A DNA stretch of 64,000 nucleotides, taken from assembly GCF_056712565.1 (NCBI RefSeq), contig NZ_CM160072.1; one strand, written 5' to 3'. The position numbers are program-made. Positions 50,301 to 52,908 of this stretch are shown piece after piece. Position 1 is the first letter of the stretch; each line of letters begins with the position of its first letter.

Positions 50301-52908
50301 GTAATACCGTTATCCCACTGTTCTGGTGGAATATATCCGCGGGCGTCACGTTTTATTATCGCCTGCGGAAAGGTCAGTTTAAGTCTCTGTGCATCCAGCT
50401 CCGGCATGTAATGCACATCAGGAAACCAGATACGCAAATCAAGGCAACTATTTTCAGATGAAGCCAAAGCCTGCTCTGGCAGCGCATTTTTGTTAATTCC
50501 AAGGCTTAATAAGTCAGCAAGTGAAAGGCAGGGAATCAGTTGATTCGCATCGTCTGCTTTAAAAGTTACAGTACGAGAGAGTAAAGGGGAATCATTGACC
50601 CAAACTTCGACTTCATAGCTACCAGGAAGATAAGTCATCCCTTTCTCGAAGCGGGATAAGTCAGCAACAGCTTCAGTATCACCCGACAGAAAAGCAGGGT
50701 TAAAGCGCATTCCCGCGATTGAACATGCAGGCATAATAACCAGAAGAAGCGGCACAACCCGTTTCATCTGCTTTTGTGCCGCCATCCAATATTCGCATCT
50801 TTTGAGCTTTAGGTTCATATCCCTGACCTGTGTTGCATCTGAACTATTCCGTTGTTACTGCATTATTCCTTTCTGCCGCTCCGTCGTAGCACCAAAGTCA
50901 TTAATTGTTTGATAAGTAATTTCACCAGCCAACGTCACTGGCGACGAGACCGTAATATCACTTTTCGGTGGTACAAACATATTGGGCAATTTACTCCCTT
51001 GTACTTTAATTCCTGTCAGTGTCAGGTAATAAGGCGAAGGATTGATAACTTTTAGTTGTTTTCCCTCATACTTAAACCGCAACATATTTCGTGCTTTTCC
51101 TGGTTGCACAGGTAGATTTTCCGGGCGATAAAATAGCTTGATTTTGTTTTGTAATGCCAACTGTAAGGTATTCTTCTGTGTATTTTTCTCATCTGTTGGC
51201 GGAATTGCTTTAACATTCATCCAATACAAAGTTTCACGATCGGTCGGCAAATTAGTCTTACCAAGAAACATGATACGTAATGAAGCTTCTTTACGCGTTG
51301 GCAACATAAAGAGGGGAGGAGTGATAACAAAATCCTGGCTCTTTTTTTCCGTTTTACTGTCATCAACCCATGATTGAATTAAATAACTGGTGTTGTCACC
51401 GCTATTTTGCACACTGAGTGTTATTTGCTTACTTTCTGCCGGATAAATCAATCGCGTTACGCCAAGGCCAAACCCGCCCGCGGACGCATTATTAATAAAT
51501 AATATCGATAGTAAAAAAAGAATCCCTGAGCGTATAATATTTTGTGATACTTTTAATTCATCCCTGAATCCACAAACCCATTTTTTATTTCCAATAATAC
51601 ATTTCATACAGCATCCTTGTTGATGAAATAACATCTGTTATTCATACTCTATTAAATAATTTCAATCTCAGGTTACAACTTTTTGTAACCTGAAATCGTA
51701 TTTATATTTACTCGTACAGCACAACAAAACTTGCTGTTGACTTAACTACACCTGGTGCAACAGTGCTACCGTTTTGAGCATAACCTGCAGTAAAGGCCGC
51801 GCTGAAATCATGGGTCGTAGCATTTCCTGGAATTGTATAAGCGGCGGTGGAGGCGCTACCCTCTGCCGCAGTGGTATTCAGGTTAATCAGACCATTATTC
51901 GTCGTACCTTTGGAGTAAATTCGAATCCCTACACCAGTCGCCCCCGCATTGCCGCTGTTGTCAGCATCCGTTGATCCTTCTACTTCGTTAGCGAGCGTTT
52001 TATTAGCGCTATCTGCAGTACCGGTAAAACGGAACTCAATTTTCTGATCATCTGTATTGCTACATTCGGTCAGATTAATATTGAAATCGGTCTGGTTGCT
52101 CGCCCCCTGTGCTTCTACGTCGATACCAGTGAAAAGGTTGGAAGGCACAACCGGCAGGACAACTTCAATCTGTTTTGAATCGGTTGCGACCTTACAGGTA
52201 GCTTTCACTACACGGCCAGTAAAGCGGATTTTCCCCCCCATTGAATCAACGTTGTCATCCATATCAGTGAGCCTGGGATAATCAACGGTGCTCCAGTCAG
52301 TATCCGCCCCACCAAATTGTGTTGCATCGCCGGGTGCTGCGGTTACCGCAGTAGACATCAGCATACCTGATGCCAGTAATACTGCGGATAAATTAGATAA
52401 ATTGAATTTCATTTATACCTTTCCTTTTGTTAAAAAACCCAAGCAACATTGGTGTTTTTACATTCTGCGTTAATAAGTTATATCTCACAAAAAAAATAAG
52501 CTGACGTTGGCTAATTCCAGAAGGTTCTTTAGAAGAGTAATTGAGTGAATAATATTATATATGCTGCTTAGTAATGTACCTAAAATAATCCAAAGCCGCA
52601 ATAAGTGAGTTTATACTCACATATAACACACTGATAATGATAAAATTTATTTTTACGTGGAGTTGTAAGAGGGGCAATAAAACATAAATCACATGAATAA
52701 TATTAATGCATTCATAATAAATTAATATTATTTGAAATAACAAAATACCAAAAACATTATCATCAATCGTTATTTAATATATATTAATGGTATATATTAA
52801 ATAGAATAACATACATCAAAGTTATTGTTTATTGTGTATAGAAATACCGTGAGTTCCACTCTGTATTACTTCAGCGGAACACACGGTATTTAGCCGTATT
52901 TGAACTTA

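Follow-up and report, generated by a model that had tools for sequence, protein, structure and literature searches.

In the present study, we analysed a stretch of 64,000 nucleotides of Escherichia coli DNA (NCBI RefSeq assembly GCF_056712565.1, contig NZ_CM160072.1), called the window below, with attention to the intergenic spacer between glgP and the major pilin gene aufA. The spacer is the control region that lies upstream of the auf fimbrial operon, and very probably it controls a horizontally acquired operon that is silenced by H-NS and StpA and depends on regulators encoded elsewhere. This interpretation is backed by data on the identity of the locus, its composition and island origin, the occupancy of the auf genes by H-NS and StpA, an NsrR peak, the response to TosR overexpression and the low level of basal expression. 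The window is phylogroup-B2 DNA. A 661-bp query made of the spacer and its flanks matched UTI89, S88, APEC O1, IHE3034, NU14 and ATCC 11775 at 100%, and the 10-kb glpD-glgP segment holding the auf island was 99.94% identical to UTI89 and 97.2% identical to CFT073. On the minus strand, the order is glgP, the spacer, seven auf genes, three open reading frames (ORFs) of no assigned function and glpD. According to the ORFs and their Pfam matches, the seven genes encode a pilin of 234 aa, a chaperone, an usher of 864 aa, two more pilins, another chaperone and an adhesin-like pilin of 373 aa; the glpD and glgP flanks and this seven-gene layout are common to the window, UTI89 and CFT073. In addition, a protein with 84% identity is called "Auf fimbriae major fimbrial subunit AufA" in its NCBI record. 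The island is the auf (aufABCDEFG) chaperone-usher operon, which corresponds to c4207-c4214 of CFT073. This fimbrial operon of uropathogenic E. coli (UPEC) CFT073 was reportedly described by Buckles et al in 2004.

An earlier note on this DNA had placed a leader of "almost pure A/T" upstream of the major pilin gene. The location was correct, as aufA starts at 52412 and the glgP stop codon lies at 52906, both on the minus strand. The stretch 52413-52860, with a GC content of 25.9%, is the lowest-GC 448-bp stretch of the 64-kb window, compared with 27.4% for the full spacer, 40.6% for the island and 50.8% for the window. The wording suits the core at 52690-52830 (84% A+T) but overstates the region as a whole (74% A+T). 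The origin by horizontal acquisition, also claimed in the note, was borne out by alignment with K-12, in which homology ends about 6 bp past the glgP stop codon; the spacer belongs entirely to the island and is absent from K-12. Among 5,426 complete E. coli genomes, the spacer of the window (type 1, at least 98% identity) was present in 557. A second auf allele (type 2), which shares the glpD-glgP site, was found in about 227 further genomes of this set. The type-2 spacer is equal in length and GC content (27%) and can be aligned with type 1 only over the aufA-proximal 203 bp, at about 72-74% identity. The same GC content of about 27% in this sequence-unrelated spacer and in the elfA spacer of a related operon speaks for silencing.

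The occupancy of this locus can be read from the chromatin immunoprecipitation sequencing (ChIP-seq) data of Hustmyer et al (2022; PMC9765446) for CFT073. In their data set S1E, c4204-c4214 are all bound by H-NS and StpA in the wild type. The H-NS occupancy ranges from 0.24 for aufA to 0.69 for aufF, against a cut-off of 0.07, and the StpA values match; in the hns stpA double mutant, the auf occupancy goes down to 0.03-0.13. After c4214, the list of bound genes continues with c4232 and does not include the glg genes (PMC9765446). The proposal of the earlier note that the spacer is DNA of the H-NS-silenced type, and the H-NS and StpA ChIP-seq check that it had named, thus find agreement in published per-gene values for every auf gene of a strain whose spacer differs from that of the window at 2 positions. 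It is suggested that H-NS may also occupy the spacer and may be the cause of the silence of auf. The core at 52690-52830 is predicted to be a block for H-NS and StpA binding and nucleation, considering its composition and the fact that the auf genes beside it are occupied in CFT073.

Expression data are in line with an operon that is cryptic in the laboratory, as had been supposed. The auf transcript levels, as reads per kilobase per million mapped reads (RPKM), are far below those of other fimbrial operons, no Auf protein appears in the proteome, and the low expression rises partially on a shift to 37 °C (PMC12890032). According to a 2026 study, serum down-regulates Auf and no other fimbrial system. 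Luterbach et al (2018; PMC5956150) showed that overexpression of TosR in CFT073 raised auf expression by log2 2.6-6.6 (6- to 100-fold); a value of log2 5.2 was obtained for aufA by quantitative PCR, and this rise came only with TosR overexpression. TosR is a PapB-family protein encoded in the unlinked tos operon and was stated to be the first regulator associated with auf. In Table S2 of the same report, a putative TosR binding sequence of 29 nt is given for aufA, TTAATATATACCATTAATATATATTAAAT, 360 bp upstream of the ATG. A further regulator was indicated by Mehta et al (2015; PMC5320621), who reported an NsrR ChIP-seq peak at 3,999,621 of CFT073, between c4214 and glgP, with the 11-1-11 motif AAATTGAATTTCATTTATACCTT. 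On sequence grounds, positions 52399-52421 of the window qualify as an NsrR operator, that is, a published site under a ChIP-seq peak, and its effect on auf is putative. The TosR induction and the NsrR peak at the start codon both agree with control by global or trans-acting regulators, as the earlier note had expected.

The same note had seen no cognate regulator or recombinase gene, and the searches upheld this. Besides fimbrial subunits, chaperones and the usher, the island ORFs comprise three products without an informative Pfam, NCBIfam or PDB match, and neither a recombinase domain nor a regulator gene was detected in the island with these databases. Furthermore, tblastn with TosR and a second PapB-family protein found no PapB-family gene in the 64 kb. 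No regulator gene was found in the type-2 auf operon, nor in a seven-gene auf-like operon of Citrobacter freundii (CP057863.1, L007:8001-15105). The three ORFs downstream of aufG were considered as hidden regulators and rejected, as they have no sequence support from Pfam, NCBIfam or PDB and are missing from the type-2 and Citrobacter operons.

The palindrome described upstream of aufA, TTAATATATATTAA, was located at 52774-52787 and occurs once in the window; its near-repeat was also confirmed, with TATATATTAA at 52778 and 52791. By itself, the 14-bp palindrome is unremarkable and not beyond chance, because a perfect palindrome of at least 14 bp appeared in 12% of dinucleotide-preserving shuffles of the region (P~0.12). 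Together, the palindrome and the near-repeat form a perfect hyphenated dyad, TATTTAATATATA-N7-TATATATTAAATA, with arms at 52771-52783 and 52791-52803. Arms of at least 13 nt were obtained in 2 of 1000 shuffles (P~0.002). The segment 52772-52800 of this dyad, read on the minus strand, matches exactly the published putative TosR sequence TTAATATATACCATTAATATATATTAAAT. The dyad was unchanged in all of six type-1 alleles whose spacers vary at other positions, with an overall divergence of 0-2%. In one of the strains compared, N1420, 8 bp (TTTTGGTA) are duplicated in tandem at about window position 52750.

Several points weigh against silencing by H-NS and StpA with dependence on distant regulators. 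The occupancies in PMC9765446 are averages per auf gene, with the spacer not tabulated, and the value of 0.24 for aufA is the lowest in the operon. Within 52413-52905, there was no match to the H-NS high-affinity motif TCGATAAATT with up to 2 mismatches, and the accessible literature yielded no report of auf expression or derepression in hns mutants. H-NS can bind AT-rich DNA without the TCGATAAATT motif. Two near matches to this motif, CGGATAAATT and TAGATAAATT, are adjacent at 52385-52403, inside the signal-peptide codons of aufA. As for TosR, its effect was seen on overexpression only, deletion of tosR was without effect, and the authors say that direct binding or action is unproven (PMC5956150). 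In addition, tosR-tosC was present in 244 of the 5,426 genomes, compared with about 784 that carry auf, so TosR is not a universal auf partner. Finally, neither the type-2 allele nor Citrobacter has the dyad.

The role of the dyad itself can be explained in different ways. Direct binding of TosR may take place there, as at a predicted site. An allele-specific operator, through which PapB-family proteins (TosR, PapB, FocB or SfaB) would counteract silencing of the type-1 (B2) auf only, is a speculative possibility to which we give a rather low probability; if it were true, two auf alleles at one chromosomal site would belong to different regulatory networks. A distinctly better chance, although one below even, is given to a dyad without specific function, arising as a by-product of low-complexity TA-rich DNA, for example by slippage or duplication of TATATATTAA; regulation would then act through AT content and H-NS only, with TosR acting indirectly or anywhere on AT-rich DNA. 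The frequency of the 14-bp palindrome in shuffled sequences agrees with this, as does the loss of the dyad from type 2 and Citrobacter while AT-richness is kept; the published TosR motif is a highly degenerate, W-rich MEME consensus, and the caution of Luterbach et al about direct action points the same way. On the other side stand the perfect 13-nt arms, reached in only 0.2% of shuffles, and the constancy of the dyad in the six type-1 alleles, although the divergence among these is only 0-2%. The symmetry would also fit a dimeric regulator outside the PapB family, such as a MarR/SlyA-type or LeuO-type H-NS antagonist encoded elsewhere, and it is as an H-NS antagonist that SlyA activates cryptic fimbrial operons, the related elf operon among them. 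However, the single SlyA-type sequence TTA-N6-TAA of the spacer, at 52529, lies outside the dyad, and the dyad is not kept between the auf alleles; this explanation is improbable.

Two further readings concern the spacer as a whole. Many fimbrial operons are phase variable, and between strains the length of the poly-T tract at 52489-52496 ranges from T6 to T10, so that a phase-variation switch was considered in the form of a fimS-like invertible element, a pap-like Dam/Lrp methylation switch or slipped-strand variation. This has hardly any probability, since no recombinase, papI or papB gene was found and the 493-bp spacer contains no GATC. (The window as a whole has 289 GATC sites, compared with 236.5 +/- 15.9 in shuffles that preserve dinucleotides.) With respect to inversion, each of the 557 genomes with the spacer could be aligned with at least 80% of it in one place, as a single piece among the matches listed, and no inversion was seen. 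With respect to slippage, the poly-T length is apparently stable within lineages: among the matches listed, strains 100% identical over the spacer share T8, and the tract is absent from type 2. Elsewhere it is T9 in CFT073 and SCU-485, T10 in RM14723, T6 in MSHS133 and T8 in N1420. A long structured 5' leader acting at the RNA level, as an attenuator, a riboswitch or a cis-antisense RNA, is very unlikely, if slightly less so than a switch. The term "leader" comes from the earlier note itself. The best-conserved part of the spacer is the stretch of about 85 nt before the ATG, near-identical in type 1 and type 2, and around the ribosome-binding site and AUG of aufA, UUGGAUUUU may pair with GAAAUUCAA (52396-52440), a candidate pairing that does not vary between the two E. 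coli alleles and C. freundii and that overlaps the NsrR motif. Against it, an Rfam scan of 52300-53000 gave chance-level hits only (AgrB, E = 0.17; mir-317, E = 0.69), the fold of the putative leader was no better than that of shuffled sequences (z = 0.03), and neither the predicted pairing nor the alignment fold showed covariation. The ribosome-binding site, the codons of the signal peptide and the NsrR site account for the conservation beside the ATG. No conserved small ORF was found; a 62-aa TTG ORF at 52555-52743 was rejected, as its I/L/Y/N composition is driven by AT content and it is not kept in type 2.

Two sigma-70 sites of the spacer, a and b, are candidate auf promoters judged from sequence. 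Promoter a, which came from the two-allele alignment, has the type-2 counterpart TTTTCA-17 nt-TATAAA; it was missed by the consensus scan, which needs T at position 6 of the -10 hexamer. Promoter b lies within the best-conserved upstream block (52550-52592), and its TATAAT is identical in both alleles. The consensus scan for promoters and terminators was uninformative: it called 0 terminators, and 4 promoter-like sites where 5.0 were expected. Just behind the stop codon of glgP, an inverted repeat with 19-nt arms (89% complementary) and a 12-nt loop folds as RNA at -31.6 kcal/mol (z = -4.2; 0 of 200 shuffles as stable). It is kept in type 2 through 3 compensatory pairs, followed there by the tail AUUUUUAU; the simple terminator scan did not call it, possibly owing to the 12-nt loop. 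From its sequence, this hairpin is probably the intrinsic terminator of glgP and would shield auf from glgP read-through. The distal ~70 bp of the spacer are most likely an island-supplied terminator hairpin of glgP, outside the auf control region. The island junction about 6 bp past the glgP stop codon was seen at window positions 52895-52911 (L002:5100-5140), and it follows that three different putative terminator hairpins stand behind glgP in K-12, type-1 and type-2 strains.

Overall, H-NS and StpA filaments coat the whole ~10-kb island, and we suggest that they would extend over the AT-rich spacer too, where they would occlude one or more weak sigma-70 promoters (candidate -10 elements at 52615-52610 and 52559-52554) and leave auf near-silent in laboratory culture. 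PapB-family proteins from elsewhere would probably act as anti-silencers on the AT-rich DNA, with the dyad, 360-389 bp upstream of the ATG, as the published candidate site; in strains without tos, PapB, FocB or SfaB are plausible substitutes for TosR. NsrR could modulate expression across the ribosome-binding site and start codon, and temperature may be another modulator, given the partial rise at 37 °C. Read-through from glgP would be blocked by the island's own hairpin. The positions of these features are collected in Table 1.

Table 1. Features of the auf locus (window positions unless another locus is named)
Feature	Position	Strand	Remarks
glgP-aufA intergenic spacer	52413..52905	(-)	493 bp, 27.4% GC; island-specific
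AT-richest core	52690..52830		16.3% GC; defined by composition
13-7-13 dyad with AT-only arms, TATTTAATATATA-TTAATGG-TATATATTAAATA	52771..52803		contains the palindrome and the direct repeat
NsrR-type 11-1-11 inverted repeat, AAATTGAATTTCATTTATACCTT	52399..52421		spans the aufA ribosome-binding site and start codon; identical to the c4214 site (PMC5320621)
Candidate sigma-70 promoter a, TTATCA-16 nt-TATAAA	52610..52637	(-)	from two-allele alignment; -10 at 52615-52610; predicted start ~52603
Candidate sigma-70 promoter b, weak -35 TAGGTA, 17 nt, perfect -10 TATAAT	52554..52582	(-)	-10 at 52559-52554; predicted start ~52547
Hairpin right after the glgP stop, then AUUUCUAU	52842..52891	(-)	arms 52842-52860 and 52873-52891
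Poly-T tract (aufA sense strand)	52489..52496	(-)	T8 in the window; T6 to T10 among type-1 alleles
aufA, major fimbrial subunit	51708..52412	(-)	234 aa; Pfam Fimbrial; start at 52412
aufB (chaperone), aufC (usher), aufD, aufE, aufF (chaperone), aufG (adhesin-like)	45258..51634	(-)	
glgP, core gene	52906..55353	(-)	transcribed toward aufA; stop at 52906
Three ORFs (201, 221 and 236 aa) between glpD and aufG	42997-45085	(-)	no informative Pfam, NCBIfam or PDB match
Type-2 auf locus	L003:3806-11482 (E. coli THO-008), L004:3806-11483 (E. coli EC1)		equivalent to window 45258-52905

Beyond the spacer, the locus shows some variation among strains. In the window, aufG (45258-46379) is an intact 373-aa ORF; according to RefSeq, it is frameshifted in UTI89 and carries an internal stop in CFT073, and the predicted adhesin AufG is a pseudogene in these two model strains. 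Of the three ORFs downstream of aufG, the middle one (43605-44372) is cut short to 221 aa in the window by a premature stop; UTI89 has a glutamine there and a 255-aa product. The CFT073 counterparts of these ORFs are c4204-c4206, which are bound by H-NS and StpA, and no homology was found between the 201-aa ORF and yzgL of K-12. The type-2 auf locus is without these three ORFs. In a type-2 strain (L003:3285-3810), the glpD-side flank is K-12-like and contains a repetitive extragenic palindromic (REP) element, followed by what is left, as a pseudogene, of the 5' part of the 201-aa ORF; this arrangement suggests that the site has a mosaic history. The protein search with AufA returned mostly E. 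coli or unnamed metagenome sequences, plus the one C. freundii operon. That operon, with an AufA 73% identical to that of the window, is located next to an ABC transporter, at a site of the chromosome unrelated to that of auf; the spacer upstream of it has 1,049 bp and 38% GC, and only about 40 nt by the ATG can be aligned with auf. Among GTDB species representatives, an exact 22-mer from the ribosome-binding-site region had no match, and a peptide-pattern scan for AufA gave no confirmed relative.

The auf operon, its poor expression, the H-NS and StpA coating, the NsrR peak, the exact AT-rich motif and the lack of a regulator in cis are already published. The present analysis is mainly a confirmation, and the locus may be regarded as a textbook case of an AT-rich acquired adhesin promoter that lacks its own regulator and is held silent by H-NS and StpA.

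Among known systems, the auf locus of CFT073 is the nearest, with the same glpD and glgP flanks and seven genes, an island 97.2% identical, a spacer that differs at 2 positions and a dyad identical to the published putative TosR sequence of aufA; it differs at the strain level only, for example by a poly-T tract of T9 in place of T8. Auf and Ycb have been described as closely related and mutually exclusive (Wurpel et al, 2013). The Ycb/Elf operon of K-12 (elfADCG-ycbUVF) is the closest paralogous operon, with ushers 48% identical, and resembles auf in its upstream spacer (355 bp, 27% GC) and in having no regulator gene; however, its upstream DNA has no sequence homology to the auf spacer, and the chromosomal site and the order of minor subunits differ. 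The elf operon is cryptic in K-12, poorly expressed in the laboratory, repressed by H-NS and activated by SlyA (PMC5797941), and SlyA binding has been shown for it. The pap, foc and sfa systems share with auf an AT-rich upstream region, its silencing by H-NS (probable for auf), the response to a PapB-family protein (here TosR) and fimbrial cross-talk; unlike these, auf has neither papB nor papI in cis and no GATC, and gives no sign of ON/OFF methylation states. Like fimS of type 1 fimbriae, the auf spacer is a promoter region of a chaperone-usher operon and is probably influenced by H-NS, but auf has no recombinase gene and no evidence of inversion was seen in 557 genomes.

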